The notes: generated from the letters alone by a model not told the origin. A stretch of DNA of 64,000 nucleotides from Fidelibacterota bacterium (GCA_018658715.1 JABHUQ010000111.1:6280-70279), one strand, 5' to 3'; positions 11,296 to 62,949 are shown, counted from the first letter of the stretch. Translations and numbers: made by a program.

Positions 11296-11300
11296 GAAAA

Positions 11301-11984: not shown

Positions 11985-12038
11985 AGTGCAAATTATTTTT
12001 ATCTCACATTGAAAGCAAATAAGTAAATTCAATATTAA

Positions 12039-29689: not shown

Positions 29690-29697
29690 TTTATTGT

Positions 29698-30750: not shown

Positions 30751-30768
30751 AGAATCCAATATTTCATA

Positions 30769-34050: not shown

Positions 34051-34053
34051 AAT

Positions 34054-37248: not shown

Positions 37249-37250
37249 TA

Positions 37251-38651: not shown

Positions 38652-38652
38652 C

Positions 38653-41574: not shown

Positions 41575-41578
41575 GATT

Positions 41579-43300: not shown

Positions 43301-44547
43301 TGGCCATTTTTCAATATCTAACAAAGGATGGTGATGGTAACCGAAAAGAAGGTGAAATCCATGCCGACTCCTTAGATATTGCTGCTCAAAAATTATCAAG
43401 CGGTGGCATGATTGTTGTCAATTTAAAAGAAGTGGATACAACATGGGATTTCCTTGGCCCTTTCTTAGATGAAGTTTCATTATCTATTGAGCGGTTCAAA
43501 AATCGTATTCCATTGAGTAATATTGTTTTTTTTACACGACAATTGTCAACAATGTTTTCTGCCGGCTTAACTATTGAACGGGCTATTCAAGGACTTGCAC
43601 TTGAAGAAAAACATAAAAAATTCAAAAAAGTATTGACAAATGTTGGTGGAAATATTCGCAAAGGGCTTAATCTTTCAGAATCATTGGAAAAACATCCAGG
43701 TGTATTCTCAAATTTATTTGTGGCTTTAACTAAGGCAGGTGAAGTCAGTGGTAACTTGAATGATATTTTAGATCAATTAGCCACTTATTTAGAAAATCTC
43801 GACGATACAAGAAGAAAAGTTCGTTCTGCCATGAATTATCCTATTTTTATGGTTATTTTTCTTGCAAGCATGATTGGCGCAATGTTTGTATTCATAATCC
43901 CTAAATTTTCTGAAGTTTATGAACAATTGGGTGCTGGTTTACCGGGAGCGACGAGAGCGCTTGTAAATTTAAGTGATTGGATCAGTGTCCATTTTTACGG
44001 TATGTCTATGATTTTGATCATGATTATTATAGGATTGTGGCTAGTATCAAAAACAAAAAAAGGAGGCTATGTATTTGATTCAATATTTTTAAAACTTCCC
44101 GTTTTTGGTCCATTAATTGATCAATCTATTTTGAACAAATTTTGCAAAACATTTGGCATTTTATTGGGAGCGGGGGTTCCAGTATTAGATACAATGGCTT
44201 TATTAAAGAAGGTAGTAAATAATAGAGTGTATGAGAAAGCCATTGAAGATTCTGCTAATTATATTCGAGATGGGTACAATATTTCAACAGCCTTAAGAAG
44301 AACAGAAGTGTTCCCATCAATTTTACTTCAATTATCTTCAACAGGAGAAGAAACAGGTGAATTAGACTCTCTTCTTGATAGAGCCGCAGATTATTATTAT
44401 AAACAAGTGAATGCACTTGTGGACAGAATGACATCATTAATTGAACCAATTCTAATCTTGGCCGTTGGTGCTGTCATTGCATTAATGGTTGTTATTACAT
44501 ATTTGCCTGTATTCTATTTGGGCTCAGCATTGCAAACAGGATTATAA
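43300..44547 (+). CDS. pilC: Type IV pilus platform protein PilC (T2SS F family)
   Basis: FTRQLSTMFSAG, AGEVSGNL, SAMNYP, GEETGELD, LIEP, YLPVF. Confidence 0.94.
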   Translation: MAIFQYLTKDGDGNRKEGEIHADSLDIAAQKLSSGGMIVVNLKEVDTTWDFLGPFLDEVSLSIERFKNRIPLSNIVFFTRQLSTMFSAGLTIERAIQGLALEEKHKKFKKVLTNVGGNIRKGLNLSESLEKHPGVFSNLFVALTKAGEVSGNLNDILDQLATYLENLDDTRRKVRSAMNYPIFMVIFLASMIGAMFVFIIPKFSEVYEQLGAGLPGATRALVNLSDWISVHFYGMSMILIMIIIGLWLVSKTKKGGYVFDSIFLKLPVFGPLIDQSILNKFCKTFGILLGAGVPVLDTMALLKKVVNNRVYEKAIEDSANYIRDGYNISTALRRTEVFPSILLQLSSTGEETGELDSLLDRAADYYYKQVNALVDRMTSLIEPILILAVGAVIALMVVITYLPVFYLGSALQTGL

Positions 44548-45197
44548 TGGAAAATATTTTCATATTCATTCCTGTAATACTTGGTGTAATGGCTGCAAAT
44601 ACAATGAAATATTTATTTGCCTTTTTTGATGTAGCTGAACCGAAAGCTATATCACATATTCCAATTTATGAATTATCGTTAGGGCTTTTATGGGCTTGGG
44701 CATTTGTTGAACTTCCAATGATTGAAGCATTTATTTTCTCATTGATTACACTGTTAATAACCGCAATTGGATGGATTGATTTAAAATCATTCAAAATTCC
44801 ATTTCTATTAATTATAACTTCAAGTTTAATTTTAATTGGATCAATCTTTTTAGACCAAATCCAAGCTACACCAGCATTTTTGGGTTTAAGTATTGGAGGA
44901 ATAATCCCTTGGGCTATTATGGTAACTACGTCCATATTTACTAAAAGAAAAGGCATGGGAACTGGAGATTTTCAACTAGGAATTATTCTTGGAATATGGC
45001 TTGGTCCTGTTCGAATGGCACTTACATTATTTATGGCAAGTTTTTTCAGTCTATTAATGTGGGCCTATATATCAATGTCCTTGGGTATTGATAAAGATCG
45101 TGCTTTGCCATTTGCCCCTTTTCTAGTTTTCGCAGCCATAGATATTTATATAGCAAGTTATTATTATCCAAAATTTTTCCATCATTTAATGATTTAA
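44547..45197 (+). CDS. pilD: A24 prepilin peptidase lacking the N-terminal Cys-rich domain
   Basis: Catalytic WIDL...IP and GMGTGD, plus LPFAPFL; 216 aa; no CxxC pairs. Confidence 0.85.
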   Translation: MENIFIFIPVILGVMAANTMKYLFAFFDVAEPKAISHIPIYELSLGLLWAWAFVELPMIEAFIFSLITLLITAIGWIDLKSFKIPFLLIITSSLILIGSIFLDQIQATPAFLGLSIGGIIPWAIMVTTSIFTKRKGMGTGDFQLGIILGIWLGPVRMALTLFMASFFSLLMWAYISMSLGIDKDRALPFAPFLVFAAIDIYIASYYYPKFFHHLMI

Positions 45198-45210: not shown

Positions 45211-48200
45211 ATGAAACACATATTATTAATAATTAGCATCTTTTTTGTCGCTATTAGTTCAGCTACAGATATACCAACTTCAAAAATTGATGATGGCTTT
45301 TCCTTTTTAGGGATTCAAAATGGAAAGCAAACAATTGGATTTGAAAATATTAATTATTCTCTAAAAACAATTGAACATTCCGGCACAGTATATCAAAAAC
45401 CAGAATTATTATCTGCTGGATCTGTTGTGGATGAAGGTGAACCATATTTACCTTCAGTAACAACCTATTATGCTGTCGAACCTGGAAAAACTTTTGAAGC
45501 CCAGATTGAAATATTAGAATCTGAGATCATTGAAAATGTTAATGTTATTCCATTCCATGGCTGGGAAAAAGATTCATTTGACCCAGAAATACCGTTAGCT
45601 CGAAATTCATCACTTTATTCTGACAATCAACTTTTCCCAAACAATATTGTGCAAGTTTCAGAACCGATCGTCATGAGAGAATTAACGATGGTAAAGGTGA
45701 CTATAACTCCATTTCAATACAATCCAGTTACACAAGAATTAAAAGTCATCCAAGAAGCAAATATTACAATGGATTCAGAAGGAACAACGGATGCTGGTTT
45801 TCGTCCGTTAACACGTTCTCGTGCTTTTGAACCACTTTATAAATCAATGGTTGTGAATTATGAAGATTATAGCCGTGATGATGTGCCCTATCAACGTCCG
45901 TCTATATTATATGTTATTCCATCCAATATTGGAAGTTTAATGTCTACTATAGAACTATTGATGGACTGGAAACATCGATTAGGCTATGAAGTGAATTATG
46001 TATCAAGTACAAGTGTTGTAAATAATTCTACTAATTTAAAAAACTACATTGAAGACGCCTATGAAACGTGGGACAATCCACCTGAATTTGTAACGTTCTT
46101 TGGGGATGCTAGTGGTACATATGATATTCCAACTTATTACGAAAATTGGAGTGGATATAATGGAGAGGGGGATCATCCCTATTCACAACTAGAAGGATCA
46201 GATATATTCCCTGAAGTATTCTTGGGAAGAATGTCTTTTTCAACCCAATCACATTTAAATACAATAGTTGGTAAAATATTAAATTATGAAGCATCCCCTT
46301 ATATGGGAGAAGATTGGTTTACAAGAGCCTGTTTAGTCGGGGATCCTTCAACTTCTGGAATTTCTTGTGTCATAACGAATGAAAATATTAACTCAATATT
46401 AGATATTAATGGCTACACAGATGTAAATACAATTTATAGTGGATCCTTTCCATCACAAATGGTTAGTGGCATCAATGAAGGTGTTTCCTTCTTCAATTAT
46501 CGGGGATATTATGGTGTAAGTGGATTCACAAGTTCAAATGTGAATAGTACATCAAACGGATTTATGCTCCCTGTAGCGACAGTAATAACATGTGGGACGG
46601 GTTCTTTTGGTGGCGATTCTATTGCTGAATCATTTTTGCGTGCAGGAACTGCTACAAATCCTAAAGGAGCAGTAGCTAGTATTGGAACGGCTACTACTGG
46701 AACACACACCATGTTTAATAATATAGTTAACATGGGCTTTTATTATGGGACATTTATTGATGATATTGAAACAGCTGGGGCAGCTTTAATGCAAGGTAAA
46801 CTTTATTTAGCAAAAGGTTATCCATCTAATCCAAATAATTATGTGTCTATTTTTACACATTGGAACAGTTTAATGGGAGATGCTTCACTCCAAATGTGGA
46901 CTGAATTTCCAAGTACATTTAATGTGGAATATGAAAGTTGGGTTATGTCCGGGACAAATTATATGGACATTCATGTAGCTTCAGGACCTGTTTCTGTAAG
47001 TGATGCATGGGTTACCATATTAAGAGATGGTGATATTTTTGAATCAGGTTATACTGACCAATCTGGAAATGTAACGCTCGATATACCTTCATCTGATGAT
47101 GGTGAAGTTTTAATTACAGTGTCGAAGAAAAACCACGTACCATACCAAGGATCTTTCCAAATTTATGACCCAGGTGTGAGTGTATACATTGTAGAAGATT
47201 ATGTAACCTATAATGATGACAATGTTGGTCAATCTTCTGGGAATAATGACGGATTAATAAATGGGGGCGAAACGATTGAACTTTATATTCCTTTTAAGAA
47301 TTATGGTACCGAAGATGGAACAGAATTAAGTATATCACTTTCGACTGATAATTCTCATGTTGTTATCATGAATTCTGATTTATTGATTGGAGATTTAGAC
47401 GCACAGCAAATGGTAATTCCAGAAACACCATTTGTTCTATCCATAGAGAGTGGTGTTCCTGAAGGCATGAATATTCCAATTATAGTGAATATTTCAGATA
47501 ATAGTGGTGGTGCTTGGCAGGGAATGGTGAATCTTGAAACGCGTGGAAATAATATAACAGCTCATATTATTAATGTTCTAGGAAATAATGATAATGTATT
47601 AGAATCTGGGCAATCATCTCAAATTGAAATAATATTAGCTAACAATGGGTCAACAAATGCTACATCATTAACAGGAACAATGATAAGTCCTTCACCAATG
47701 ATAGATATTGTAGATAATGAAGGTTCTTGGCCTTTGATTGGAGCAGGATCCGTTGGATCAAATTCATCCAATACATTTGAAATAGCCGTTTTAGAAGGAA
47801 CAATCCCAGGGACCATCGTCCATTTAATTATAAACCTAGAATCTAGCGATGGGTACGAAACAAATATTGTTGTTCCAGTTCAAATTGGAATGCCAACTGT
47901 ATTCGATCCTTTAGGCCCAGATGATTATGGTTATTACATTTATGATAGTGGTGATGCTTTATATAATCTGGCACCTTATTATTCTTGGGTGGAGATAGAT
48001 GATCGTCAAGGTGGGCCTGGCTTTCATCTTAACTCATTAACAGATTCAGGCAACAATGGTGATGATGTTGAAACGGTTACTCTTCCATTTTCTTTTAAAT
48101 TTTATGGACTATCTTATGATGAAATAAGTATTTGTAGTAATGGTTGGATTGCAATGGGTGAATCAACATTAGAATCTTTTCGGAATTATGAATTGCCAGG

Positions 48201-48801
48201 TCCTGCAGGACCATCTCCTATGATAGCAGGATTTTGGGATGATTTACAATTGACGAATGGCGGTCGAGTTTATACGTATTATGATCAAGCAAATCATCAA
48301 TATATTGTTCAATGGTCCCAAGTAAGAACATATCAAAATAATTCTACGAATACATTTCAAATTATTTTGAGAGATCCTGCATATTATTTTGGTCCCACTG
48401 GGGATGGGGAAATATTAATTCAATACAAAGAATTTAATAATACATCCTATGGTAGCTATGGCTGGGGACAAACACATGGTAATTATGCAACAGTTGGAAT
48501 TGAGGATCATACAATGACGGTAGGATTAACCTATACATGGAATGATACTTATCCTACAGCATCCATGGAATTGGGTGATGAAACAGCCATTCTTATTACC
48601 ACGCGTGGAAGTGAAGTTCGCATGTTTGGAGATTTGAATATGGATGAAGTCATTAATCTTTTTGACATTCTTGGTCTGGTAGATTATATCTTAGGCAGTG
48701 GCGCACCAATAAATCCATATCTTGGCGATATTAATCAAGATGGTATGATAAATGTATTAGATATGCTTGGCCTAGTTCAAATTGTAATGGGGTGGCGATA
48801 A
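45211..48801 (+). CDS. C25 gingipain-like protein with propeptide, Ig-like and NIDO-like domains and a C-terminal dockerin
   Basis: GEPYLP propeptide, PFQYNPV, WK..LGY, GDHPYS.LEG.D.FPE..LGRM, NYRGYY, ITCGTG, GAVA.IG, LMGD; C-terminal GDLNMDEVINLFD / GDINQDGMINVLD. Confidence 0.88.
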   Translation: MKHILLIISIFFVAISSATDIPTSKIDDGFSFLGIQNGKQTIGFENINYSLKTIEHSGTVYQKPELLSAGSVVDEGEPYLPSVTTYYAVEPGKTFEAQIEILESEIIENVNVIPFHGWEKDSFDPEIPLARNSSLYSDNQLFPNNIVQVSEPIVMRELTMVKVTITPFQYNPVTQELKVIQEANITMDSEGTTDAGFRPLTRSRAFEPLYKSMVVNYEDYSRDDVPYQRPSILYVIPSNIGSLMSTIELLMDWKHRLGYEVNYVSSTSVVNNSTNLKNYIEDAYETWDNPPEFVTFFGDASGTYDIPTYYENWSGYNGEGDHPYSQLEGSDIFPEVFLGRMSFSTQSHLNTIVGKILNYEASPYMGEDWFTRACLVGDPSTSGISCVITNENINSILDINGYTDVNTIYSGSFPSQMVSGINEGVSFFNYRGYYGVSGFTSSNVNSTSNGFMLPVATVITCGTGSFGGDSIAESFLRAGTATNPKGAVASIGTATTGTHTMFNNIVNMGFYYGTFIDDIETAGAALMQGKLYLAKGYPSNPNNYVSIFTHWNSLMGDASLQMWTEFPSTFNVEYESWVMSGTNYMDIHVASGPVSVSDAWVTILRDGDIFESGYTDQSGNVTLDIPSSDDGEVLITVSKKNHVPYQGSFQIYDPGVSVYIVEDYVTYNDDNVGQSSGNNDGLINGGETIELYIPFKNYGTEDGTELSISLSTDNSHVVIMNSDLLIGDLDAQQMVIPETPFVLSIESGVPEGMNIPIIVNISDNSGGAWQGMVNLETRGNNITAHIINVLGNNDNVLESGQSSQIEIILANNGSTNATSLTGTMISPSPMIDIVDNEGSWPLIGAGSVGSNSSNTFEIAVLEGTIPGTIVHLIINLESSDGYETNIVVPVQIGMPTVFDPLGPDDYGYYIYDSGDALYNLAPYYSWVEIDDRQGGPGFHLNSLTDSGNNGDDVETVTLPFSFKFYGLSYDEISICSNGWIAMGESTLESFRNYELPGPAGPSPMIAGFWDDLQLTNGGRVYTYYDQANHQYIVQWSQVRTYQNNSTNTFQIILRDPAYYFGPTGDGEILIQYKEFNNTSYGSYGWGQTHGNYATVGIEDHTMTVGLTYTWNDTYPTASMELGDETAILITTRGSEVRMFGDLNMDEVINLFDILGLVDYILGSGAPINPYLGDINQDGMINVLDMLGLVQIVMGWR

Positions 48802-48821: not shown

Positions 48822-50003
48822 ATGACAGCTTTTCCCTTAATCATACTTGGATTTTTATTACTCTTCTTGTTAGGGGCGGGTGTATTAGAGTTCCAACTTC
48901 ATCAGCGTGTTCTTGCTACGATTCCATTACGAATTCACGTAAATGGAACTCGGGGAAAATCTAGTGTAACGCGTCTAATAGCGGCTGGATTAAGAGCAGG
49001 CGGTTTACGCACATTTGCAAAAACAACTGGAACAGCGCCTCGTGTAATAGACATGGAAGGGAAAGATAGAATCATTCATCGACTTAGGTTACCATCCATA
49101 GGCGAACAGGTAAGGTTAATGTCTTTTTTCTCAAAAGAAAAACCAGATGCAATGGTGATGGAATGCATGGCAGTACAACCACAATATCAATGGATAGCAG
49201 AGCACCAAATGATTCAATCACAAATTGGCGTTATTACAAACACTCGACCAGATCATCTGGAAGAAATGGGACCAACAGAAAAGGATGTTGCATTGTCTCT
49301 ATGTAATACAATTCCAGAAAATGGAAGCTTAATTACAGGGGAAGTTGAAAAATATTCTATCTTAAAAGATGTGGCTGCTTCTCTAGATACATCTTGCATA
49401 TTATCCAACGAATCCACCGTTTCTGAAGATGAATTAAATGCCTTTAATTATTTAGAACATCCACAGAATGTAGCCGTTGCTTTAGATGTATGTGATGCCG
49501 TGGGTATTGATAGAAATGTTGCTTTAAGTGGGATGCAAAATGTGCAACCTGATTTAGGTGCATTGGTCGTTTGGAAATGTGGTTTTGATAATAAAACAAT
49601 TTCATTTGTAAATGGAATGGCTGCCAATGACCCTGTTTCAACTTTACAAATTTGGAAATTTATAATTGATCGATATCCTGCTAAAGGTGGAACATGTGTT
49701 TTACTGAATTCGCGTGAAGATCGACCTGTACGAACACGGCAAATGATAGAATTAACACTTGAAGAAATAAAACCAGATCATTTTATAGTCAGAGGGAATA
49801 AAGTAGACTCATTATTAGATCGTTTGCATCATCATTCGCCCTTGACTCAATTTCATACTATTGGATTAGATCAACCGACCCAAAAAACAATTGAAATGAT
49901 AAAAACTTTAACAAATGATTCATTGGTATATGCCATTGGGAATCAAGTGGGTGCTGGACAGGAAATTTTAAACCAATTAAACATGGTAAGAGTAAATGGT
50001 TGA
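48822..50003 (+). CDS. pgsB: Poly-gamma-glutamate synthase PgsB/CapB
   Basis: RIHVNGTRGKSSVTRLIAAGL, KTTGT, IGEQ, ECMAVQP, TNTRPDHLEEMG, AANDP. Confidence 0.95.
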   Translation: MTAFPLIILGFLLLFLLGAGVLEFQLHQRVLATIPLRIHVNGTRGKSSVTRLIAAGLRAGGLRTFAKTTGTAPRVIDMEGKDRIIHRLRLPSIGEQVRLMSFFSKEKPDAMVMECMAVQPQYQWIAEHQMIQSQIGVITNTRPDHLEEMGPTEKDVALSLCNTIPENGSLITGEVEKYSILKDVAASLDTSCILSNESTVSEDELNAFNYLEHPQNVAVALDVCDAVGIDRNVALSGMQNVQPDLGALVVWKCGFDNKTISFVNGMAANDPVSTLQIWKFIIDRYPAKGGTCVLLNSREDRPVRTRQMIELTLEEIKPDHFIVRGNKVDSLLDRLHHHSPLTQFHTIGLDQPTQKTIEMIKTLTNDSLVYAIGNQVGAGQEILNQLNMVRVNG

Positions 50004-50439
50004 AGTGTCAATTGGTTTAGGGATTGTTCTTAGTCTAATATTATCAGAATCGTTAGGTGTTACTGCAGGAGGCATTATTGTTCCTGGGTATATATCACTT
50101 TATTTGCATCAGCCGTTACAAGTTTTAATTACATTTGTAGTGGCAGCGATTGTATATGGAATTATTCATTTATTGAGTAAAGTTATGTTCCTATATGGAA
50201 AAAGACGATTGGTATTAGCATTAATTCTTGGCTTTTTCCTGGGGTATATATCGAGGCATTATATTTATTCGCCATTTGATAATTTATCTTTTGCTGTGAT
50301 TGGTAATATTATTCCAGGTCTCATAGCAAATTGGATGGATCGTCAAGGTGTTGTTCGAACATTATCAGTGGTTATTGTAACGGCAGTACTTGTAAAACTA
50401 TTGGTTATGATTATATTTGGAGGACAACTCGTTGTCTAA
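49996..50439 (+). CDS. pgsC: Poly-gamma-glutamate biosynthesis protein PgsC/CapC
   Basis: E.LG.TAGGIIVPGY, LYGKRR, IGNIIPGLIANWMDRQG. Confidence 0.95.
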   Translation: MVEVSIGLGIVLSLILSESLGVTAGGIIVPGYISLYLHQPLQVLITFVVAAIVYGIIHLLSKVMFLYGKRRLVLALILGFFLGYISRHYIYSPFDNLSFAVIGNIIPGLIANWMDRQGVVRTLSVVIVTAVLVKLLVMIIFGGQLVV

Positions 50440-51583
50440 TTATAAAAAACAACCCTTTATTCCAATGATTCAGAAAACATCTACTTTAGTAGGGCTAGCA
50501 GTATTAAGTATTGCATGTTTTACATTTTCAGTCAACAATAAAGTAATTGATGTTTCTCCTACATATGATTTAAAAGTAAAAGCAGCTCAATTAATGAAAA
50601 AGGGCATGGAAGAACTCAAACAAGCTCGAATGGAAAAAAGTATATTTGTTGATTTAGAGAATGACCCAAATGAAACAGGGTTGGTTGGGAGTCCATTTAG
50701 CTTAATAACGACTGATGAAGGTGATTTAGACGCAAAGCTTACGACTCTGGATCCTAACTTTTCTGCTGCATTAGTTGAACTTTATTATCGCGCAGGTCTC
50801 AAATCAGGTGATACTGTTGCTGTCTTACTAACAGGGTCAATGCCTGGTGGTAATATAGCTGCCCTAACTGCATGCAAAACGATGGGAATAACACCTGTAA
50901 CAATAACATCTGTCGGTGCATCTCAATGGGGAGCTAATCATGAAGATTTTACATGGCTCGATATGGAAAATATTCTTTTTCAAAAAAGTATTATTTCAAA
51001 TAGAAGTATAGCTGCTTCTATTGGAGGTAGGAATGATTTGGGACGATTATTGAGTCCTAAAGGTCGTGATCTTATTCGTAAAAATATTGCTGACCATGAA
51101 TTGCCCATTATTCATTATAATCGTTTAAAAAATAATATTCAGGAACGGCTCAAACAATTCTCATCAATATTGCCTATTAAGTCGTATGATGCATTTATTA
51201 ATGTTGGGGGTGGAGTTGCAAGTTTAGGAACATCTTTTAACCATAAGTTGCTCCCTCCGGGTGTAATTCTTCGGAATCATATAACTGACATTACACGTCC
51301 AGGTGGTATTGAGGGTGTGTTATCTCATTTTGCAAAACAGAATGTACCTGTTGTTCATATTTTAAACATTAAATCGCTCACGGAATCGTTAAACCTTCCA
51401 TTTGCACCAATACCAATTCCTGATATCGGTTCAGGCAAATTATATGCTAATGAGACATATAATCTCATTATTACCTTTTTAGCATTTATGGTTGTTGCAG
51501 GTGCTGTAGTAGGAGTTGGATTTCATAGTAAGAAAAGAATTAAGGAACACTTATTACAACATGAACCAGATAGTTTATTATAG
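50417..51583 (+). CDS. pgsW: Poly-gamma-glutamate system protein (PgsW-like)
   Basis: DPNETGLVG...ITT..G.LDAKLTT.DP, GSMPG, SVGASQWGAN, INVGGG; N- and C-terminal TMs. Start uncertain (TTG 50417 or ATG 50465). Confidence 0.85.
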   Translation: MEDNSLSNYKKQPFIPMIQKTSTLVGLAVLSIACFTFSVNNKVIDVSPTYDLKVKAAQLMKKGMEELKQARMEKSIFVDLENDPNETGLVGSPFSLITTDEGDLDAKLTTLDPNFSAALVELYYRAGLKSGDTVAVLLTGSMPGGNIAALTACKTMGITPVTITSVGASQWGANHEDFTWLDMENILFQKSIISNRSIAASIGGRNDLGRLLSPKGRDLIRKNIADHELPIIHYNRLKNNIQERLKQFSSILPIKSYDAFINVGGGVASLGTSFNHKLLPPGVILRNHITDITRPGGIEGVLSHFAKQNVPVVHILNIKSLTESLNLPFAPIPIPDIGSGKLYANETYNLIITFLAFMVVAGAVVGVGFHSKKRIKEHLLQHEPDSLL

Positions 51584-52442
51584 AAAAATTCTTATAACCA
51601 TTTTAGGTATTATTTTTGTAGGTACCTTAGATGCCACATTGTTGAAACCTTCGGAGAATGGTGAAAAGAAAGAAATACTCATAATTAATAAAAAAAGACG
51701 TCTGTATTATCCTGTGCAAAATGAAGGATTAGTTTACTCGGTCTCGGGTCCAATTCGGCTAGAGTTTATTTCTCGATATCCTATTCTTAAAAAAAATAAA
51801 AAAAGTCATCCATTCCAATACAAAATTGTTGTGAATAAACAGGATACTATTCAGGTAAAACATCGATATAAAATTCAAAAAAGGATTAAATCGGTTCAAC
51901 ACCCAAAGCACTATTACTCATATTCTGGGAATTATTTCATAAATATTCCAAAGGGTGAACATCATATTCAAGTTCTTCCATCAGGCAAATCAAAATATCC
52001 CGTTCTCTCTCGTGTATTAGCAAAAGATTTTGAAAAGGTTGGGAAAGAAAAGCGAATTATAATGCCAATGGTACATCAATCAGCTATTCCATTAAAAATC
52101 CAAGGGAAAAAAATGGATTATTATGAATGTTCACAGAAATTGCCACTTCAGATTGAATCTAATGGCCCTAAGTCGATTAAAATATTAAGTCGACTTTCAT
52201 TTAATGAATTAATGGGACAAGAATCTTCATATAGGGTTCGAATTAAAAGTGGTCAAAAAGTAGTTGGAACATTCTATTTTAACACTGAGCGATCATCTGA
52301 AACAACCATACCTGACCATCCTGAATGGGTACCAGGAAAATGGAGATCCTGTGAAATTAAGGTCCCAAAGGGTAAACATGTTTATACTATTAAAATTTTA
52401 GATGTAAACAAATCTATTTTGGCACGTTTTATTGAGTATTAA
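51561..52442 (+). CDS. Basic exported hypothetical protein with two repeated beta-rich domains
   Basis: Signal peptide; GPIRLEFISR...IPKGEHHIQV and GPKSIKILSR...VPKGKHVYTI; Lys/Arg-rich. Probable start ATG 51561. Confidence 0.7.
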   Translation: MNQIVYYRKILITILGIIFVGTLDATLLKPSENGEKKEILIINKKRRLYYPVQNEGLVYSVSGPIRLEFISRYPILKKNKKSHPFQYKIVVNKQDTIQVKHRYKIQKRIKSVQHPKHYYSYSGNYFINIPKGEHHIQVLPSGKSKYPVLSRVLAKDFEKVGKEKRIIMPMVHQSAIPLKIQGKKMDYYECSQKLPLQIESNGPKSIKILSRLSFNELMGQESSYRVRIKSGQKVVGTFYFNTERSSETTIPDHPEWVPGKWRSCEIKVPKGKHVYTIKILDVNKSILARFIEY

Positions 52443-53462
52443 ATGAACAGGTTCTTATTATTTGTAGTATTGGCCTCTACATTGGGTGCTAGTACGCCAC
52501 TTTATATGACTTTTGGATTGGAAAATGGCTATGACTCCAATGTATTAAGATTGTCTGAACTTGAAAAAGGGGAAGCTGCACATTACTTAGACATGTTAGG
52601 CGGTATGGAAACATTTGATTCCCACATACTTAAAGGATCTATTCAAGGGAAAAAAGAATATTATATTCGTGGTAGAGTTCTTGCATTTTCGGGCTCGTTT
52701 GGGTTAACAAATTATTCCCATTCTACACACAAGCAATATAATTCTCATCGTTTACTAGTTTCTTATAAATTAGGGTCATATAAAAAAATTGATTATTTGA
52801 TTAACCATTTAGATCAATACTATTTAAGGCATTATATAGATAGGGATATTTCTTCTACACTTTTAAATGCTGCTGCCTTTACAGATAGAAACCAAAGAAT
52901 TGGATTTTCATATCCATTATTAAAGCGTACATGGTTAAATATATGGGGCGGATATTTACAGAGATATTATAACAATCCATTTACAGAATTTGATTTAGAT
53001 ATATATTATGGAAAGATAAAAATAAATCGATCAATTCGAAAATTTGGTACGGTTGGAATTCAATTTGAACAGGGTAGAGCTGTAAATAAAACTTTTGGAG
53101 AAACGGCTGTAGCAAGTGATTTTGACAGGAGTTATAATTATTATCAATTCTATATCCCTATTAGCAAAACAAAACGGAACCGTTGGACAGATGGAGTTGG
53201 ATTTTCAACAAGGGCGGATATTCGTACCTATGATGCTGAAAATTTGAGTGATCCATTACATGCAGGGAGAAATCATTTAGATTTGAAACTAGATGTTTGG
53301 GCGAAAAAAAATATTACAGAATGGATTACGTTAAAGTCTACTCTTCGTTATCGATCACGAAGTACCAAGTCTCAATTTGAGTGGGTAGAATCTCTCAAGA
53401 GTTTTAGTCAATGGCAACTAGCGTGCAAATTAGAATGGAATATGATTTATGATAAATATTAA
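52443..53462 (+). CDS. Putative outer-membrane beta-barrel protein
   Basis: Signal peptide, GLENGYDSNVLR N-terminal strand, alternating aromatic/polar strands rich in Tyr and Arg, aromatic C-terminus. Confidence 0.65.
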   Translation: MNRFLLFVVLASTLGASTPLYMTFGLENGYDSNVLRLSELEKGEAAHYLDMLGGMETFDSHILKGSIQGKKEYYIRGRVLAFSGSFGLTNYSHSTHKQYNSHRLLVSYKLGSYKKIDYLINHLDQYYLRHYIDRDISSTLLNAAAFTDRNQRIGFSYPLLKRTWLNIWGGYLQRYYNNPFTEFDLDIYYGKIKINRSIRKFGTVGIQFEQGRAVNKTFGETAVASDFDRSYNYYQFYIPISKTKRNRWTDGVGFSTRADIRTYDAENLSDPLHAGRNHLDLKLDVWAKKNITEWITLKSTLRYRSRSTKSQFEWVESLKSFSQWQLACKLEWNMIYDKY

Positions 53463-54468
53463 TAAAAAGTTATTAATAGGGTTTATAGGATTCATCTTTT
53501 TATCAGGGTGTATGGAGCCCAAAACAGAATTGTTATGGGATGTAGAAACATATACCGTAATAGAGACAAATGGATTTTGTCGCTTTGTGGATATTCACAA
53601 TGATACCGCTTTTGTTGCTGCGGGACAGGCAGGGGTTCAAATTTGGGATTTGAATTCTGTCACAAAAATTATTGGCTTAGATCAATATTCGGCTTCACAG
53701 GATTTAAGTGATATTGCGCAAATAGAATATGCACCGACGATAAAAAAAATATTTGCACTTGAAAATAATAGCCGAGTGGTTATTATGGATTTGATTCATG
53801 GTGATTCCCTTGCTGTTCTAGGTGAAGAAATGAGTGAAAAAACACGAGAAATCCGCATTTTAGAAGGGAGTGATTCTTATATCATTTTAGCTGCTGATAA
53901 TGATGATGGATTAAAGTGGAATAAGTTTGATTTTTTTGCTGATTGGGGAATATGGTCCAATGTGGCGGGTACTGAATTATCCACACCAGGCAAACCTATG
54001 GGGTTGGACTATTTAAATGGGAATATTGCATTAGCAGTAGACCAACAAGGCATAGAACTTTGGACATTAGATTCTTTAGGTGCCGACCCTGTATTTGTAA
54101 ATAGACTAGATACACCGGGAAATGCTGAAAAAGTAACATTGACAGAAACAGGTGTTTTTGTAGCCTGTGATGATGCAGGAGCCAGGTATATTCCATTGGA
54201 TATTTTGTATTTACCTGTACAAGATAATTTATATATTGAAAAGCAATTTGCTGAAGATTTAACTGTGGACCACATTGCAGTTTCTGGAGATAAAGCTGTT
54301 TTGTCCGTCGGAGGAAAGGGAATTGCACTATACGATATTTCTAATCCTGGAAGTCCTGAACCGCGAGGAATATTTGATGTGGGATATACGTATTATTCCA
54401 CTTTTTGGGAAGAGAAGTTAGTCGTATGTACAAGAGAAGGGCTTGTTGTACTTAATATTATTCAATAA
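53449..54468 (+). CDS. LVIVD-repeat beta-propeller lipoprotein
   Basis: Lipobox LSGC; AFVAAGQAGVQIWD, LDTPGNAEKV, VFVACDDAG, GIALYDISNPGSP. Confidence 0.8.
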   Translation: MININKKLLIGFIGFIFLSGCMEPKTELLWDVETYTVIETNGFCRFVDIHNDTAFVAAGQAGVQIWDLNSVTKIIGLDQYSASQDLSDIAQIEYAPTIKKIFALENNSRVVIMDLIHGDSLAVLGEEMSEKTREIRILEGSDSYIILAADNDDGLKWNKFDFFADWGIWSNVAGTELSTPGKPMGLDYLNGNIALAVDQQGIELWTLDSLGADPVFVNRLDTPGNAEKVTLTETGVFVACDDAGARYIPLDILYLPVQDNLYIEKQFAEDLTVDHIAVSGDKAVLSVGGKGIALYDISNPGSPEPRGIFDVGYTYYSTFWEEKLVVCTREGLVVLNIIQ

Positions 54469-54478
54469 GAAAGAAAAA

Positions 54479-57400
54479 ATGAAACATATACACAAAATAA
54501 TTATTATACTTTTAAGTTCAATCTTATTTGGGCAAAACTTATTAAACGAAGCTGGAATTCCAATTCGTCAAGGAATTCACATAGAATGGTTTAAAACGGT
54601 TAGTCCAGGAACAGATGGGACCGCCATATTTGTATGGTCAGACAATAGATTTGGACCGCGTAATATTTTTGCTCAAAAAGTTAATGGAGATGGAGAATTA
54701 CTTTGGGGTGAAGCTGGTGCAGTTGTAACTGATCTACCAGGTAGACAGGAAGACCCTGTTTCTATTTCTGATGGAAATGGTGGTGTTTTTATTGCTTGGA
54801 TCGATTATCGTTTTGATGAAGAGGGGGATGTATTCTACCAACACATAGACTCTGATGGGTATAGATTACTTGATGATAACGGGATACCATTGGCTTTAAT
54901 ACCAAGCAAGCAAATATCAATAAATATGTGTACTGATAGTCTTGGTGGTGTATTTGTTACTTGGCAAGATAAGCGAAATCAGGTTGATGAAGATATTTAT
55001 GGAACCCATATTTCTTCAGATCATTTAGTGGTAGAGCCAGGATTAGGTGTGCCTGTCATTGTTGCCGGTGGAGCTCAAATGGCTAAGAGTATTGAATATG
55101 CTGGAAATAATGAAGCATTTATTGTTTGGGCTGATGCACGAAATGGCGGAAATATGGACATTTATGGTCAACGATTGGATATGAATATGAGTCCACTTAT
55201 GACTAGTGATGGATTTCCTGTTGCGTCATCTGATATGCTCGAAACACGTCCTAGAACAACTTATATGTCGAATAATCAATCATTTGTAACATGGAAGTCT
55301 GGCGATGAAAGTTCAGAAATTTTATATCAAATTATAGATCCTAATGGTTTTGTGCTAATGGCGCCTGTTAAAGTTTCACAATTTGATGCGATTCAGAAAT
55401 CACCACGTATCAAACGAAATGCCAACGGAGAAGTATTTATTAGTTGGACAGATTTAAGATTTGATTCAATTGATGGTGATATATTTTTCCAAAAAATTGG
55501 ATTGGATGGAACTATTTTATGGGGAGACGGAGTTCAGTTGGATACATCCGATGAAAAAAATCTGAATGGACGATTTGCAGGAGACGAAAATGGTGGATTA
55601 TATGTTGTATGGGAAAGAGGCAGCTTCCCCGATACGGATATTCCTGCTCAATATTTTTCTCCTGATGGTGTAGCAGAATGGACAAATGATCAGCATATCT
55701 CAAATGCGAATGGGAATCAAGATGCTCCAAATGTTGTTTATTCTGCAGATATTGGTTTATTTACAATTTATGGAGACAAATCATCTGGAAGTGTCGATTT
55801 GCGAGTTGATTACCCTCTGGATGGTAGTTCTCCTTTCTCTGAGAATGATATTCTTGGTGCAACAGGAATGGATGGCGATGTAAAATATATTAAGGGATTC
55901 AATGCAAATGCAGGTGAATCCATTTTATTATGGGAAGATAACCGTTATTCACAAAAGATTTATGCTGATCGTGCCATTAATGAAGATTTAGAACATACAA
56001 ATGGAGTCCAAATTACTTATTCAGATGATTCTGCATCTGATGATGATTTAACTTATCCTCGATATCATTTTGATGGGAATCATTTATATGTTGCCACATT
56101 CGATGGTTCTGGAACACCAAAATCCATGCGTATCAATAAATTAACCACGGATTTTGAAAATGTTTGGGGTGACTCAGGTGTAGTAGCTACTAGTTCAATG
56201 GATCAGTGGAATGGGCAGCTCATAGGTCTTGATGGAACAATCGGTTGTTTTTGGAGTCAATATCAATCCATAAGCATGGATGCATTTTTTCAACGATTTG
56301 ATGATAATGGTACACCATTACTAGATGGAAATGGGAAAGTATTATTAGATGGATGGAATGATGAATTCTTATTAAAAGCATTTAATACACCTGATAATAA
56401 AATTATGATATTCTGGTTGGATAATGCATGGCATAATGCAACATTGAAAGTTAAAAAAATAGATTTAAATGGAAATCTAGCTGTAGGTTGGCCATCCGAT
56501 GGGTATAACTTGAGTGCTGGTGTTTATGAAATACATGATTTTAGTGCCAATATTGTTTCAAATGACGATGGTATTTTTACAGCATGGCGACAAACAACAA
56601 GCACAGAAACGGAAATATACGGCCAAATGGTTGATTGGGATGGAAATATGGTTTGGGGTGATGCTGGAATTTCTATATCTAATGCTGAGCAAGATCAGGT
56701 GAATCCATCCATGGATATTGATCCTATAGGCAAAACTGCTTTTGTAGCTTGGGAAGATTTAAGGAATGGAAATGATTATAACATTTATGGACAAGAAATA
56801 GATTTAATTACAGGTGAATTATCCGGCGAAGCTGTACAATTTTCATCTGATACAACCCAACAATTAAAACCATACGTAAAAAATGTATATGAAAATCACT
56901 ATTTTATTTTGTGGGAAGATGGACGTGGATTTAATACAATAGACCCACTGCTAACAGGTGGGACAGATATTTATGGCGCAGGGTATAGAACAACAATTGG
57001 TATGACATCCGAAATAGATGGATTTTCTGTTGTAAAGAATTATCATGACCAAAAAGATATTCAAGTGACATCTTACAATCAAGAATCGCAATATTTGCTC
57101 CATTGGATTGATTTAAGAAGTTCAGGGAAAGAAGATATTTACAATTATTACGGTCGTATTGTTGAAGTGGCTGATTTACTGAATGTAAAAGACGATCATG
57201 AAGTTTGGGCTCAAGATTTTAGCCTCCATTCAGCTTATCCAAATCCATTTAATGGTGCAGTTCAATTTTCATTCAATATGAAAGGAACAAACCCAGTCGA
57301 ATTTGCAATATTTGACCTAACAGGTAGAAAAGTTTCTGATCGCTTAATTCTTCCTAATGCATCTGGGACATATCAGATTTCATGGAATGGTACAGATATG

Positions 57401-57490
57401 CGTGGAGTAGATTTATCTAGCGGAATATATTTTTATCAGTTCAAAGCTAATAACGTAATAATTAAAGATAAAATTACATACTTAAAGTAA
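54479..57490 (+). CDS. Secreted repeat (beta-propeller) protein with C-terminal sorting domain
   Basis: Many DG.GG.FI.W.D.R...DIY.Q...G...W repeats; AYPNPFN...SSGIYFY...KITYLK CTD. Probable start ATG 54479. Confidence 0.8.
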   Translation: MKHIHKIIIILLSSILFGQNLLNEAGIPIRQGIHIEWFKTVSPGTDGTAIFVWSDNRFGPRNIFAQKVNGDGELLWGEAGAVVTDLPGRQEDPVSISDGNGGVFIAWIDYRFDEEGDVFYQHIDSDGYRLLDDNGIPLALIPSKQISINMCTDSLGGVFVTWQDKRNQVDEDIYGTHISSDHLVVEPGLGVPVIVAGGAQMAKSIEYAGNNEAFIVWADARNGGNMDIYGQRLDMNMSPLMTSDGFPVASSDMLETRPRTTYMSNNQSFVTWKSGDESSEILYQIIDPNGFVLMAPVKVSQFDAIQKSPRIKRNANGEVFISWTDLRFDSIDGDIFFQKIGLDGTILWGDGVQLDTSDEKNLNGRFAGDENGGLYVVWERGSFPDTDIPAQYFSPDGVAEWTNDQHISNANGNQDAPNVVYSADIGLFTIYGDKSSGSVDLRVDYPLDGSSPFSENDILGATGMDGDVKYIKGFNANAGESILLWEDNRYSQKIYADRAINEDLEHTNGVQITYSDDSASDDDLTYPRYHFDGNHLYVATFDGSGTPKSMRINKLTTDFENVWGDSGVVATSSMDQWNGQLIGLDGTIGCFWSQYQSISMDAFFQRFDDNGTPLLDGNGKVLLDGWNDEFLLKAFNTPDNKIMIFWLDNAWHNATLKVKKIDLNGNLAVGWPSDGYNLSAGVYEIHDFSANIVSNDDGIFTAWRQTTSTETEIYGQMVDWDGNMVWGDAGISISNAEQDQVNPSMDIDPIGKTAFVAWEDLRNGNDYNIYGQEIDLITGELSGEAVQFSSDTTQQLKPYVKNVYENHYFILWEDGRGFNTIDPLLTGGTDIYGAGYRTTIGMTSEIDGFSVVKNYHDQKDIQVTSYNQESQYLLHWIDLRSSGKEDIYNYYGRIVEVADLLNVKDDHEVWAQDFSLHSAYPNPFNGAVQFSFNMKGTNPVEFAIFDLTGRKVSDRLILPNASGTYQISWNGTDMRGVDLSSGIYFYQFKANNVIIKDKITYLK

Positions 57491-57493
57491 AAT

Positions 57494-59812
57494 ATGAATA
57501 TCATACGCTCTTTAGGATGGATAATTATCTTTCTGTTTTCAACAGTTATTAGTCAGGAACTTGATTCTCGATACCATACGTTAGAAGAAATCTATGAAGC
57601 TATTTATGCCATAGATGAAGATTCAAATACAGATTATTTTTTTAGGATTGATACAATTGGGTTCTCGACGCTTGAGAACATTCCAATTCTAGCTGTAAAA
57701 ATCTCCAATAATGTAAATGTGCGAGAAGATGAAGCTCGCGTTTTATTTATTGGACAAGTGCATGCAGAAGAAGTCATTGGCGTGGAAAGTGTACTTCAAT
57801 TAATAGATGATTTAGTTAATCCAGAACCTATTCAACAAAATCACGTAAATATTCTTAGAGCTAATCTCGAAATATGGATTATCCCAACAGCTAATCCTGA
57901 AGGATTAAATGTGGTGCACGAAGGCTTAGACGTGAGTTATCGCAAAAATAAGCGTGATTTATCGCCAGAAGGGCCATTCCCAAATGGCGTATTTGATTTT
58001 GACCCATCTGTAGGGAATGATTTGGATGGTGTCGATATAAACAGAAATTTTAGTTTTAATTGGACATTTGGAGATACATTCTTAGAACCTGATGCAAGTG
58101 ACTATGCGTCTCATTATGATTATTACAAAGGGGAAGAACCTTTCTCGGAAGGTGAATCCATTGCTATAAGAGATCTAGCTCTCAGAGAACAATTTCTATT
58201 CTCGATCGTGTGGCATAGCTCTAGATCAGGGCGTTTATCTGAAAAAGTATTTACATCATGGTTATGGGAAGAATCTAAACCCTCACCAGACTTAACGTAC
58301 ATGAAAACCATTGCAGACGATTTTGCAGAAGGAATAGAAACGGAAGATGGATCGGGAACATATTTATCTGTATATAGTGGCTCTCGAAATGGAAAATTAC
58401 ATGATTGGTTTTATCGAGAAACTGGATGTATTCAATATTTAATCGAATGTGGAACAGCGATTCTTCAACCGGATAGCACATTATTGGAAAATACCATCGA
58501 ACGCATAAATCCAGCCATGTGGTATTTAATGGATCGTTCTATTGGATATTATATGGATGCATCCCAATTAACTGGAATTGTAACTGACGCATCCACAGAT
58601 GCTCCAATTCAAGGTGCTATTGTTGAAGTACTAGAGCACAGTGGTTCAGTGTTAAAACCGCGCAAAACGGATGAATTTGGGCGCTATAGACGTATATTGG
58701 ATGTAGGTTCCTATACTGTTTCAATTCGCGCAAAAGGATATGAGCCGCAGATAATCAGCGTGGTTGTTAATAATGCAGCCATTACAAATCAAAATGTTTC
58801 ATTAAATCTGGCTCAAAATTATACATTAAATGTGTCAACAATTATTCATGATTTATTGACTGTGGAAAGTACAGGTTATTTATTTACAGAATTTGGCATA
58901 GATACTCTTATTATAGGTGGAACTAATATTATTGAATTACCGGAAGATGATTATCATTTAACATTAATTCGTATGGGAACAATGATGCCATGGGAAAAAT
59001 CATTTCATTTAAACCGCGATATGTCATTTATTGCTGATTTTCAAGAAGCGAATCCTGTCGCACTCGGTGAATCTTGGCCATGGGAAAATGCACAAGGACC
59101 TTGGATTGTAGGAAATGTTATTCTTAAAACTCAAGAAGATTCATACTACGAAAATGGTGATACAGCATTTACTGAGCAATGGATGGAATCGGAGTTGGTC
59201 GATATGTCAGGAAAAAATCGACTGGTTTTAAAGGTAGATCATCGGTTCGAAACTGAATGGGATTATGATCCAGTTTCAATATCGATGATTGATCAAAATG
59301 ACTCTCTACTTGTCAGTAAATCGTGGACGGGGTTAGCGTGGGGAGATTATCAAACAGATTATATGACAGCAATCAATGAAAGTGGATTTGACAGTGTAAA
59401 AATAAGATTAAGCTTTTTACCGGATGAGACGGTGAATTATCACGGATGGGAATTGCAAGAATTAACTTTATTTTCAGTTAATGATGAATATCTTAGTGTA
59501 GCTGCATCACAAGGTGGTTACATGCCTAAAATTCCATTAACACTCAATAGGATATTTCCAAATCCATCTCAAGGAATGTTTCAACTTGATATTGGACATT
59601 GGCCTGGTGGCAAAGGTGGAATTGTAGTTTATAATTTATTAGGTCAAGAAATAGCTCAATATCCAATTAATCAATTATCTCCAGGACGACACTTCATTCG
59701 ATTGAACTTAGAGCAATCTATGAATAAACTTTTAAGTTCTGGTGTCTATTTTATCGTTTTAAATACAGAGAGGGAAATGGTCACACAAAAATGCGTATTT
59801 ATGAAAAATTAA
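57494..59812 (+). CDS. M14 zinc carboxypeptidase with transthyretin-like domain and C-terminal sorting domain
   Basis: HAEE (HxxE), NPEG, RKN, GVDINRNF, WHS, IEC; CarboxypepD_reg-like GIVTDAST..PI.GA; FPNP CTD. Confidence 0.9.
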   Translation: MNIIRSLGWIIIFLFSTVISQELDSRYHTLEEIYEAIYAIDEDSNTDYFFRIDTIGFSTLENIPILAVKISNNVNVREDEARVLFIGQVHAEEVIGVESVLQLIDDLVNPEPIQQNHVNILRANLEIWIIPTANPEGLNVVHEGLDVSYRKNKRDLSPEGPFPNGVFDFDPSVGNDLDGVDINRNFSFNWTFGDTFLEPDASDYASHYDYYKGEEPFSEGESIAIRDLALREQFLFSIVWHSSRSGRLSEKVFTSWLWEESKPSPDLTYMKTIADDFAEGIETEDGSGTYLSVYSGSRNGKLHDWFYRETGCIQYLIECGTAILQPDSTLLENTIERINPAMWYLMDRSIGYYMDASQLTGIVTDASTDAPIQGAIVEVLEHSGSVLKPRKTDEFGRYRRILDVGSYTVSIRAKGYEPQIISVVVNNAAITNQNVSLNLAQNYTLNVSTIIHDLLTVESTGYLFTEFGIDTLIIGGTNIIELPEDDYHLTLIRMGTMMPWEKSFHLNRDMSFIADFQEANPVALGESWPWENAQGPWIVGNVILKTQEDSYYENGDTAFTEQWMESELVDMSGKNRLVLKVDHRFETEWDYDPVSISMIDQNDSLLVSKSWTGLAWGDYQTDYMTAINESGFDSVKIRLSFLPDETVNYHGWELQELTLFSVNDEYLSVAASQGGYMPKIPLTLNRIFPNPSQGMFQLDIGHWPGGKGGIVVYNLLGQEIAQYPINQLSPGRHFIRLNLEQSMNKLLSSGVYFIVLNTEREMVTQKCVFMKN

Positions 59813-62800: not shown

Positions 62801-62949
62801 TAATGTCAAAATGGATCAATGCTGGTCATCATCAAATCATATGGAATGGACAAAATTATTTAGGACAAATGGTCTCTTCGGGACCATACTTTATTGTGGC
62901 AAAAACTCATAATGATACACGTATCCAAAAAGTATTATTTATGAAATAA
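59791..62949 (+). CDS. Second C25 gingipain-like protein with NIDO-like domain and C-terminal sorting domain
   Basis: YLIIVP, YVLLIGD, SDQKYS...PDVFIGRM, NYRGWG, YVCNSNDF, GGVAFIG, YNILGDP; AYPNPFNP CTD. No full propeptide. Confidence 0.88.
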   Translation: MRIYEKLILTILITSFGFADGITFRGKSVEAMAQETIPLAFQHFVESELDLPHLTNLNRGSYLIIVPDGLVSYLDQFVSFKKSQGFDVNVSLLSEAGSSSDEIKTFIGATLAEDPMLEYVLLIGDVDGFAALPSFYYGPENDVSDQKYSHLLGDDIVPDVFIGRMSVDNLTDLIVILSKTMKYARDPLAYDQNWLNRGLIVAGNYSNTYPIPITPKWTSYWLRDELLDFGYSNVDTVFYPPTQQGAPQIISAINQGAGIVNYRGWGDANGWHYPEFHVSDVNDLNNGWLTPVFMSYVCNSNDFANNVDPCLSEAVLRSGTPSVPKGGVAFIGPSDLHTSTKYNNIINAYMYDAMLNHKVVELAPAMLAGQLGLQKEFPEQDDAGEAQEFYTHVYNILGDPSLQVYTGTPNTFLFDYEPIYDNDGFLDLRVTDINGQTTRNAVIAVMMNDELIAKGLTDSDGRFLASLESQAISNYQIYANKNGYIQGMVEVQSNEPTSDLYLSNITISSVDNGEMVGLGESFSLSIILTNSSGNTVNGFNGTVIFSEGVESQSVNVTIPTLESGESSTMDLVDIVIYNPFHSVGATFRLINESGDRIVDGVIPVELPIFNITFENTSITPNSTIEPILSVESFSKVSYNDVHFDIGQSVDGAEVEYNSESNNLSDLSPFSSSLESTNYTINIDDVSYGSDITFFIDFVKSNHSIYRQEVQLHIEPQTENLPVAPSHYGYWAFDDTDTGFDQTPTFDWVELDPTYGGSGATEYLLDDDDHVDVDLPFTFQYHGQEYDRLTISSNGWASFESCYIDYFWNYTIPMYMGPKALLAPFWDDLEVVDENWIRVYTRYDEVNGQFIVEWSRVLNGYDEVTEETFEIILYTQEAMSTESGDGVIDFQYLEIDDVDATKNYATVGIESPEKNDGIQYSFNHGLASGAAPLANERIIRFTTYAPDNYVAPLDVDNDIYPSEFILSNAYPNPFNPTTHLNLMIGEDKFMSVLVYDMLGREVNTLMSKWINAGHHQIIWNGQNYLGQMVSSGPYFIVAKTHNDTRIQKVLFMK

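Follow-up and report, generated by a model that had tools for sequence, protein, structure and literature searches.

How a chain of poly-gamma-glutamate (PGA), once polymerised at the inner membrane, could get past a second, outer membrane is the question raised by a locus of a Fidelibacterota bacterium, contained in a stretch of DNA of 64,000 nucleotides (GCA_018658715.1, JABHUQ010000111.1:6280-70279), which is called the window and whose own coordinates are used throughout. Within a dense run of + strand genes extending from about 34 to 63 kb, six open reading frames (ORFs), all of them on the + strand, occupy positions 48822-54468: three for a PGA synthase (pgsB, pgsC and pgsW), followed by one for a very basic secreted protein, here called P4, one for a putative outer-membrane beta-barrel and one for an acidic lipoprotein (Table 1). 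The initial annotation of this DNA had taken the last three to be the missing periplasmic guide and outer-membrane channel for PGA in a diderm. The answer reached here is that P4 and the barrel may handle the passage or the retention of PGA at the outer membrane, which is the most likely reading of the locus, and a tentative one.

Table 1. Features of the PGA locus and of its flanks, in window coordinates
Feature	Position	Strand	Basis
pgsB, ATP-dependent amide ligase of poly-gamma-glutamate synthase	48822..50003	+	TIGR04012, Mur_ligase_M
pgsC, small polytopic membrane subunit	49996..50439	+	TIGR04011, Caps_synth_CapC, hydrophobic segments
pgsW, 'poly-gamma-glutamate system protein'	50417..51583	+	TIGR04332, two membrane helices
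P4, secreted very basic protein with two homologous beta-rich domains	51561..52442	+	charge, duplication, orthologues
Putative outer-membrane beta-barrel of an undescribed family; motifs GYDSN, FTEFD, DPLHxGR	52443..53462	+	ESM Atlas model, aromatic C-terminus
Acidic lipoprotein with propeller-like repeats, doubtful member	53449..54468	+	lipobox, charge, repeats
Type IX secretion system (T9SS) cargo protein, conserved neighbour outside the finding	54443..57490	+	Por_Secre_tail, 1015 aa
C25 and M14 peptidase genes of the flanks	45211-48801, 57494-59812, 59791-62949		one C25 with dockerin and NIDO; M14 with T9SS tail

The synthase itself poses little difficulty, as PgsB, PgsC and PgsW can be taken from their NCBIfam scores, all above the cut-offs, to be true members of their families. 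PgsB scores 414.1 bits against the TIGR04012 equivalog (cut-off, 222.7), carries a single N-terminal membrane helix (residues 4-22) and is 36.9-37.1% identical to the Bacillus capB/pgsB entries among the matches listed. PgsC reaches 119.4 bits against TIGR04011 (cut-off, 96.45) and matches Caps_synth_CapC with an E-value of 8.3e-33, while PgsW, encoded directly after it, scores 300.1 bits against TIGR04332 (cut-off, 100), a family for which the symbol pgsW follows RefSeq usage in Cetobacterium. Two membrane helices (residues 21-39 and 350-368) flank a PgsW domain of about 310 aa, which is probably periplasmic according to the positive-inside rule. PDB sequence searches with PgsW gave noise only, and the start of its gene is uncertain, since homologues of 383 and 372 aa suggest position 50432 or the ATG at 50465.

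PgsW occupies the place expected for pgsA/capA. In fact, none of 53 ORFs of the window (10 at E<=0.01 and 43 at E<=1e-5) had a Pfam match to CapA (PGA_cap) or to CapD (gamma-glutamyltranspeptidase), so that the initial annotation was right in stating that no pgsA/capA or capD is present there; a capE gene is too small for an absence call based on Pfam. In the Bacillus PgsBCA(E) and CapBCADE systems, PgsB and PgsC belong to the same families as here, and CapD anchors PGA to the peptidoglycan in Bacillus anthracis. The present locus differs from them in having PgsW in the place of PgsA and no CapD in the window, in the outer membrane that has to be crossed, and in the two extra envelope genes that form part of the unit.

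These extra genes follow the synthase with hardly any space left over. Read directly from the sequence, the pgsB/pgsC junction is an overlap of 8 nt, the ATG of P4 sits 23 nt ahead of the pgsW stop, the barrel ATG comes directly after the P4 TAA (52440-52442), and the lipoprotein ATG gives an overlap of 14 nt with the end of the barrel gene; unassigned space between 48822 and 54468 is nowhere larger than about 25 nt. The ORF calls and the junctions thus agree with the series of overlapping or abutting reading frames described initially. A scan for sigma-70 promoters and terminators gave signals at or below shuffle expectation, and none of the junctions showed an enrichment of the Bacteroidetes-type TAnnTTTG box, so that neither kind of signal marks the limits of an operon.

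The arrangement is not peculiar to this genome. A genome scan was carried out with a 20-sequence barrel alignment, a choice which biases the loci obtained towards Marinimicrobia, and yielded 80 species-level loci, almost all of them labelled Marinimicrobia, Neomarinimicrobiota or Fidelibacterota. Genes were counted by tblastn of the window proteins, considering only the loci whose contig reaches far enough. Among the barrel loci, P4 was present in 76/76, pgsB in 61/61, pgsC in 65/66 and pgsW in 66/67, the single miss for both being L009, whose contig starts in the last 68 codons of pgsW; the linkage of the downstream genes to pgsBCW, as anticipated by the initial annotation, is therefore found in relatives. 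The pgsW/P4 overlap is kept as well, with a median of -20 nt over 70 loci, and the large gaps between these two genes in L030 and L054 contain runs of N in the sequence. As identity to the window falls to 38% for PgsB, 28% for P4 and 24% for the barrel, and locus GC ranges from 0.30 to 0.54, the linkage between pgs, P4 and the barrel is considered old. Moreover, both flanks are rearranged in the most divergent loci, and pgsB-to-barrel is contiguous in them; L075 is without the upstream C25 peptidase gene, and L069, L070, L071 and L076 are without the M14 and C25 genes after the T9SS cargo gene. Because gene order in divergent loci breaks outside pgsB-to-barrel, two tight sub-blocks are distinguished: pgsB-pgsC-pgsW-P4-barrel, broken once (L009), and lipoprotein-T9SS cargo. 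The former is one inherited Marinimicrobia unit.

Some loci deserve separate mention. In L018 (6374-7995), pgsB is broken into two ORFs, and so is pgsC, with P4 and barrel intact, which may reflect frameshift errors or decay of the synthase. A block of the Marinimicrobia type was also encountered in L073, labelled as a metagenome-assembled genome of Winogradskyella sp., with a GC of 0.374 that is within the range of the other loci; furthermore, one P4 protein (P0183) is labelled Euryarchaeota and one ESM Atlas entry 'Archaea'. Mis-binning is a more likely source of these odd flavobacterial and archaeal labels than gene transfer.

What, then, are the two proteins that accompany the synthase? 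P4, with 293 aa and a hydrophobic N-terminus, ranks first in basicity among the 49 window ORFs scored (18.1% K+R, a net charge of +30 and an isoelectric point (pI) of 9.96), and its halves are homologous to each other (hhalign, 97.3%; E 1.8e-11), which bears out the earlier description of a Lys/Arg-rich exported protein with two domains. In L079 and L080, P4 consists of a single domain, of the N-type. The strongly positive charge, which is kept by the orthologues (73/74 net positive, with a median of +19), suits a polyanion. We infer that P4 is both a periplasmic partner of the barrel and a polyanion binder. No Pfam, NCBIfam or PDB match was obtained for P4 and no TPR (tetratricopeptide repeat) match either; within its family, 10/32 members had a weak match to the Ig-like domain MtxA_IG-like (best E 0.0014), and none of the 32 had a Pfam match to TbpB-type families. 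Neither P4 nor the barrel has a paralogue elsewhere in the window. The idea that P4 and the lipoprotein neutralise each other's charge was dropped, their net charges being uncorrelated (rho, 0.11).

The next protein, of 339 aa, looks like an outer-membrane barrel, judging from the ESM Atlas model of its exact sequence (pTM, 0.84) and from its C-terminus, the last residue being aromatic in 234/267 full-length family members. The nearest structural neighbour outside the family is a cluster with BBP2_2 in 43% of its members (TM-score, 0.82), followed by Slam-type clusters with SlipAM (PF04575) and TPR (0.72-0.74 over about 285 residues). With such barrel neighbours, the fold on which the initial proposal depended is supported. 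The Atlas matches cover residues 6-339, leaving no room for a separate N-terminal domain. In addition, the protein shows a hydrophobic N-terminus, an amphipathic alternation pattern, the highest Tyr content of the window (8.0%) and 13.6% K+R, and bears a GYDSN motif at residues 29-33, consistent with the YDSN-type barrel rich in Arg and Tyr that had been reported; among the 267 members, YD[SN]N is found in 235, FTEFD in 227 and DPLHxGR in 216.

In terms of sequence families, the barrel belongs under no named one. The window protein gave no Pfam match at E<=10, no NCBIfam match and no match in PDB sequence searches, and among 79 family members OMP_b-brl was matched by six and EpsL (TIGR03014) by one (E 1.1e-5, a value that stands without comparison to the curated cut-off). 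The barrel is thereby similar to the BBP2_2 (PF10082) and EpsL barrels of polysaccharide loci, through the structural cluster and the EpsL match, and shares with them an N-terminal YDxN motif. It differs in that PF10082 was matched by 0/79 members at E<=1, and the likeness gives no function, since both families are mechanistically uncharacterised. A profile search of 1.84 billion representatives returned 371 relatives at E<=0.001, the best 150 of which were examined; in another search with the barrel the named matches were all labelled Marinimicrobia, as were those of the P4 search save for one Euryarchaeota entry.

As for charge and topology, the barrel is net positive in 70/76 orthologues, and the charge estimated from strand alternation hints at a basic lumen. 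A crude estimate of this alternation gave 15 strand-like windows. Mean-field direct coupling analysis of the 267 barrel sequences (effective number, Neff, 170) gave no signal of strand pairing or of barrel closure above its noise, and indel mapping offered too few loop sites for a strand count.

The association between P4 and the barrel goes further than adjacency of their genes. Among the best 150 of the 371 relatives, a representative of 498 aa (P0322), whose identity to the barrels of the 80 loci does not exceed 27%, consists in this order of a signal peptide, a domain at residues 33-151 and a barrel at 156-496. The barrel part matches the barrel profile with an E-value of 6.0e-21, and residues 33-151 match both the profile of the P4 C-domain (hhalign, 97.15%; E 4.7e-11) and, by tblastn, the P4 genes of 8 loci (E about 1e-9 to 2e-11). 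The signal peptide at the start is the only one; no other separates the P4-type domain from the barrel. Because so distant a relative carries a P4-type domain at the N-terminus of its barrel, this architecture adds support to the view that P4 and barrel act together as a pair of periplasmic partner and barrel. PgaA, BcsC and Slam likewise carry periplasmic TPR domains at the barrel N-terminus, and domains fused to outer-membrane barrels at this end normally lie in the periplasm. A second candidate fusion, P0075, was not counted, as its sequence begins only midway through P4 and the junction resembles a deletion.

The place of the lipoprotein is a different matter. It has an LSGC lipobox, with the Cys invariant in 19/19 aligned orthologues, a net charge of -27 (from -12 to -48 among the orthologues scored, all of them acidic) and a pI of 4.26, compared with 4.05-4.46 for the T9SS-secreted proteins of the window. 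The sequence lends moderate support to a beta-propeller, through an LVIVD match below the cut-off (E 0.0054), internal repeats of about 40-45 aa (hhalign, 55-85%) and a profile with 20 weak PDB matches, nearly all to WD40/propeller proteins (best, 9.4e-4); no TPR match was obtained for either lipoprotein or barrel. Of the beta-propeller lipoprotein first proposed, the lipobox has consequently been confirmed and the propeller fold gains moderate support.

By tblastn, the lipoprotein was found in 56/66 loci; nine of the ten misses have an ORF in the same position which aligns with it and keeps the Cys, and the tenth (L072) has an acidic ORF of 376 aa there. In L051, a 424-aa ORF on the opposite strand (11047-12321, -), without a Pfam match, lies between barrel and lipoprotein, so that these two cannot be co-transcribed, and in L029 they are separated by a gap of 690 nt. 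The T9SS cargo gene that comes next encodes six WxDxR...DIYxQ repeats about 55 residues apart, has no family beyond its sorting tail and gave no match in a PDB sequence search; it is present in 55/55 loci reaching far enough, the lipoprotein always being within 150 nt (n=51). Since this gene always follows the lipoprotein, the two may form a surface module of their own. The lipoprotein, being acidic throughout and tracking the T9SS gene and not pgs, is a doubtful component of the PGA unit, and its place is probably with the T9SS surface protein encoded next to it rather than with pgs.

How the remaining five gene products might work together can be sketched as follows. PgsB and PgsC, with PgsW in the place of PgsA, would build the chain from glutamate at the inner membrane and drive it, as a polyanion, into the periplasm, where P4, situated on the periplasmic face of the barrel in the manner of the TPR domains of PgaA and BcsC, would bind the chain with its Lys/Arg surface and feed it into the barrel, which would provide for its passage across the outer membrane. 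If so, P4 and barrel would be the first outer-membrane apparatus dedicated to exporting a polyamide, a synthase-dependent route with a polycationic adaptor of tandem beta domains replacing the TPR domain and a new barrel family replacing porins of the AlgE/PgaA type, a proposal slightly more tentative than the involvement of P4 and barrel in handling PGA.

The obvious models are the synthase-dependent export systems Alg8/Alg44-AlgK-AlgE (alginate), PgaABCD and BcsABC. As in these, a gene for an inner-membrane polymerase is followed by those for a periplasmic partner and an outer-membrane barrel; as in PgaA and BcsC, the partner can be fused to the barrel N-terminus, which is the case of the P4-type domain in P0322; and, as with alginate, the cargo is a long polyanion. 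Nevertheless, PGA is a polyamide, the periplasmic partner consists of basic beta domains in tandem instead of a TPR, the barrel protein has only 339 aa, and the locus is without a c-di-GMP receptor. PgaA is a 16-stranded porin, and systems of this class have or associate with TPR domains (PMC8406197).

A further step is to ask how other diderms with pgsBC are equipped. In Cetobacterium somerae (plasmid p1, NZ_CP143320.1; L081), positions 2574-9981 hold ggt, DUF6305, a TRAP permease, a small ORF, an AstE/AspA-like peptidase, pgsB, pgsC and pgsW, with no outer-membrane gene within 9 kb, and with ggt and the AstE/AspA-like peptidase as possible PGA-processing genes. Another member of the Fusobacteriota, Fusobacterium nucleatum, is reportedly the first Gram-negative PGA producer (Candela 2009, cited in PMC3815933). 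The Cetobacterium trio is the same, in a diderm too, and the PgsW proteins are 30% identical, but that of Cetobacterium has 319 aa and aligns only to window residue 301, before the membrane helix at 350-368.

On plasmid pCHRO.01 of Chroococcidiopsis thermalis PCC 7203 (NC_019699.1; L082, 8908-15617), pgsB is followed by a PgsC of 333 aa, a hypothetical protein of 347 aa, a PilZ+HlyD adaptor of 584 aa, a PG_binding protein and a metallophosphoesterase. The hypothetical protein was considered as a counterpart of PgsW or of the barrel, and is unrelated to both. Alg44 of the alginate secretion system likewise combines PilZ and membrane-fusion domains, an architecture that by analogy suggests a c-di-GMP-gated route of PGA export in this cyanobacterium. 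From this plasmid order, envelope parts behind pgsBC are not unique to Marinimicrobia, a parallel that speaks for the reading of P4 and barrel given here. Diderms, with one case each for Cetobacterium and Chroococcidiopsis, share no single solution, and the initial annotation, in proposing the missing PGA channel of diderms, was too general, the former doing without the partners and the latter having a different adaptor.

Several observations weigh against the handling of PGA by P4 and barrel, besides the doubtful inclusion of the lipoprotein. Tight packing is general, since overlapping or abutting neighbours are found for nearly every gene between 34 and 63 kb. Conservation of genes outside the finding is almost as high, with the upstream C25 peptidase in 49/50 loci (a match in L075 being excluded from this count as a downstream paralogue), the T9SS cargo gene in 55/55 and the M14 peptidase in 47/51, and for this reason synteny alone is unspecific; pairwise-distance correlations are 0.87-0.91 among pgsB, pgsW, P4 and barrel, and 0.81-0.89 with the T9SS gene. 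The linkage may also count as a single evolutionary event, given that all 80 loci belong to one lineage, and the unit is interrupted in L009, the sole such case seen, by a 472-aa ORF (187-1605) inserted between pgsW and P4, with a lipobox, without a Pfam match and with first residues that repeat the P4 N-terminus. In Cetobacterium, pgsBCW is followed by a cold-shock gene, without P4 or barrel, and the barrel had no match in 72,556 plasmids. A TPR domain is absent from P4, barrel and lipoprotein; BBP2_2, SlipAM and any polymer-porin Pfam family were matched by 0/79 barrel members at E<=1; and alignment of the barrel with Escherichia coli PgaA gave an hhalign value of 0.2% (AlgE and BcsC were not directly compared). 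The net charge of the barrel is negative in 6/76 orthologues, and that of its lumen is a crude figure only, the family average being +4.3 for the inward phase and +0.6 for the outward one. Finally, the N-terminal fusion in P0322 also fits a passenger displayed by its own barrel. Of the guide and channel put forward initially, the linkage and the barrel fold have held, and the fusion favours the pair; the linkage is not specific, the inclusion of the lipoprotein is doubtful and the claim was too general.

Some of these points would be accounted for if P4, barrel and lipoprotein were unrelated to PGA and simply envelope genes in a block frozen in this lineage, where the order from the gspE/gspF-like pilus genes to the second C25 peptidase is kept in most loci. 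The packing of the 34-63 kb run, the lack of a promoter or terminator signal bounding an operon, the Cetobacterium case and distance correlations that do not single out pgs are all in keeping with such a block. It would not, however, be expected that divergent loci keep pgsB-to-barrel contiguous despite their rearranged flanks, that the pgsW/P4 overlap is conserved and P4 positive in 73/74 orthologues, or that the window holds no P4 or barrel paralogue and all 80 barrel loci occur with pgs where the contig allows, and an unrelated function is considered unlikely. A similarly low probability is given to the barrel being a translocon like Slam/type XI (DUF560, PF04575), which would display the lipoprotein and/or P4, PGA crossing elsewhere; in a variant of this, a polycationic P4 at the surface might hold PGA as a capsule. 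Size and shape of the barrel are alike, the SlipAM/TPR clusters lying among its Atlas neighbours (TM-score, 0.72-0.74), but SlipAM/DUF560 was matched by 0/79 members at E<=1, the best structural neighbour is of the BBP2_2 type (0.82), and the family occurs here outside Proteobacteria. P0322 has the passenger ahead of the barrel, as autotransporters do, and in acidity the lipoprotein resembles those window proteins that are secreted by the T9SS. The adjacent lipobox gene, starting in the last codons of the barrel, and the gene for P4, with a signal peptide of the signal peptidase I (SPI) type, ahead of it match the layout of Slam cargo: 185/353 Slams adjoin a lipobox gene (PMC5449769), and Slams also secrete soluble proteins with SPI signal peptides (PMC8406197). 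On the other hand, every Slam surveyed in the former had an N-terminal TPR domain (PMC5449769), for which there is no counterpart here, and the known Slam cargo described in the latter has a C-terminal eight-stranded barrel (PMC8406197), whereas the lipoprotein appears propeller-like. Furthermore, the neighbouring proteins do not appear to be TbpB-like, with no TbpB-type match in P4 members, and barrel and lipoprotein are separated in L029 and L051, P4 and barrel are not.

Retention rather than export could also be the task of the barrel, if it were a surface anchor like Wzi, the lectin barrel of group 1 capsules, keeping PGA on the outer membrane together with P4 and replacing the anchoring by CapD. 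This is the least probable of the alternatives, and a remote one. The polar motifs conserved in the family (DPLHxGR in 216/267 and FTEFD in 227/267) do suggest a binding site over a plain pore, P4 is polycationic, and a CapD/GGT (gamma-glutamyltranspeptidase) gene is missing from the window; yet no similarity to Wzi appeared in any Pfam scan of the barrel or of its family members, the domain fused at the N-terminus would normally be periplasmic, and the crossing of the outer membrane by PGA would be left unexplained, there being no other barrel gene in the conserved unit.

Should P4 and barrel indeed handle PGA at the outer membrane, they would represent two new families of proteins whose function is open to testing, and the unit would offer a compact module for PGA secretion by Gram-negative hosts. 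Marinimicrobia (SAR406) are abundant, uncultured bacteria of the deep ocean, and, as the unit is present throughout the 80 loci sampled, these cells would be coated in PGA or shed it. A widespread marine lineage would then be making an acidic, metal-binding polyamide, with a bearing on particle chemistry and on the dissolved organic nitrogen pool. Should one of the rival explanations apply instead, the P4-barrel pair, fused in P0322, would still be a new two-part outer-membrane device. In the literature searched, no treatment of PGA export across the outer membrane was found among the matches listed, nor any text joining Marinimicrobia with polyglutamate or poly-gamma-glutamate, and PgsW in the bacterial sense was absent from the literature matches listed. 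In fact, the words 'outer membrane' are nowhere used in a review of PGA production in which F. nucleatum figures as a Gram-negative producer (PMC3815933).

With regard to the surroundings of the locus, the pgs unit is flanked in most loci by two C25 (gingipain-type) peptidases and an M14 carboxypeptidase; a trimming of PGA by the M14 enzyme is no more than speculation. Immediately ahead of the C25 and pgs genes, a complete-looking cluster resembling type IV pilus and type II secretion systems extends from 29276 to 45197 of the window. It comprises two N-methyl pilins, a PilT-like ATPase, PilM, PilO, a secretin and a Big_1 protein of 979 aa, together with an MshE-type ATPase, a PilC/GspF protein and a prepilin peptidase, and its gspE/gspF/peptidase end is kept in most loci. 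Farther upstream, between 17562 and 24227, a conserved-looking group is led by a PF13941 'MutL protein' ATPase-like gene and a gene for a DUF6754 protein, and includes five ORFs without a family match.

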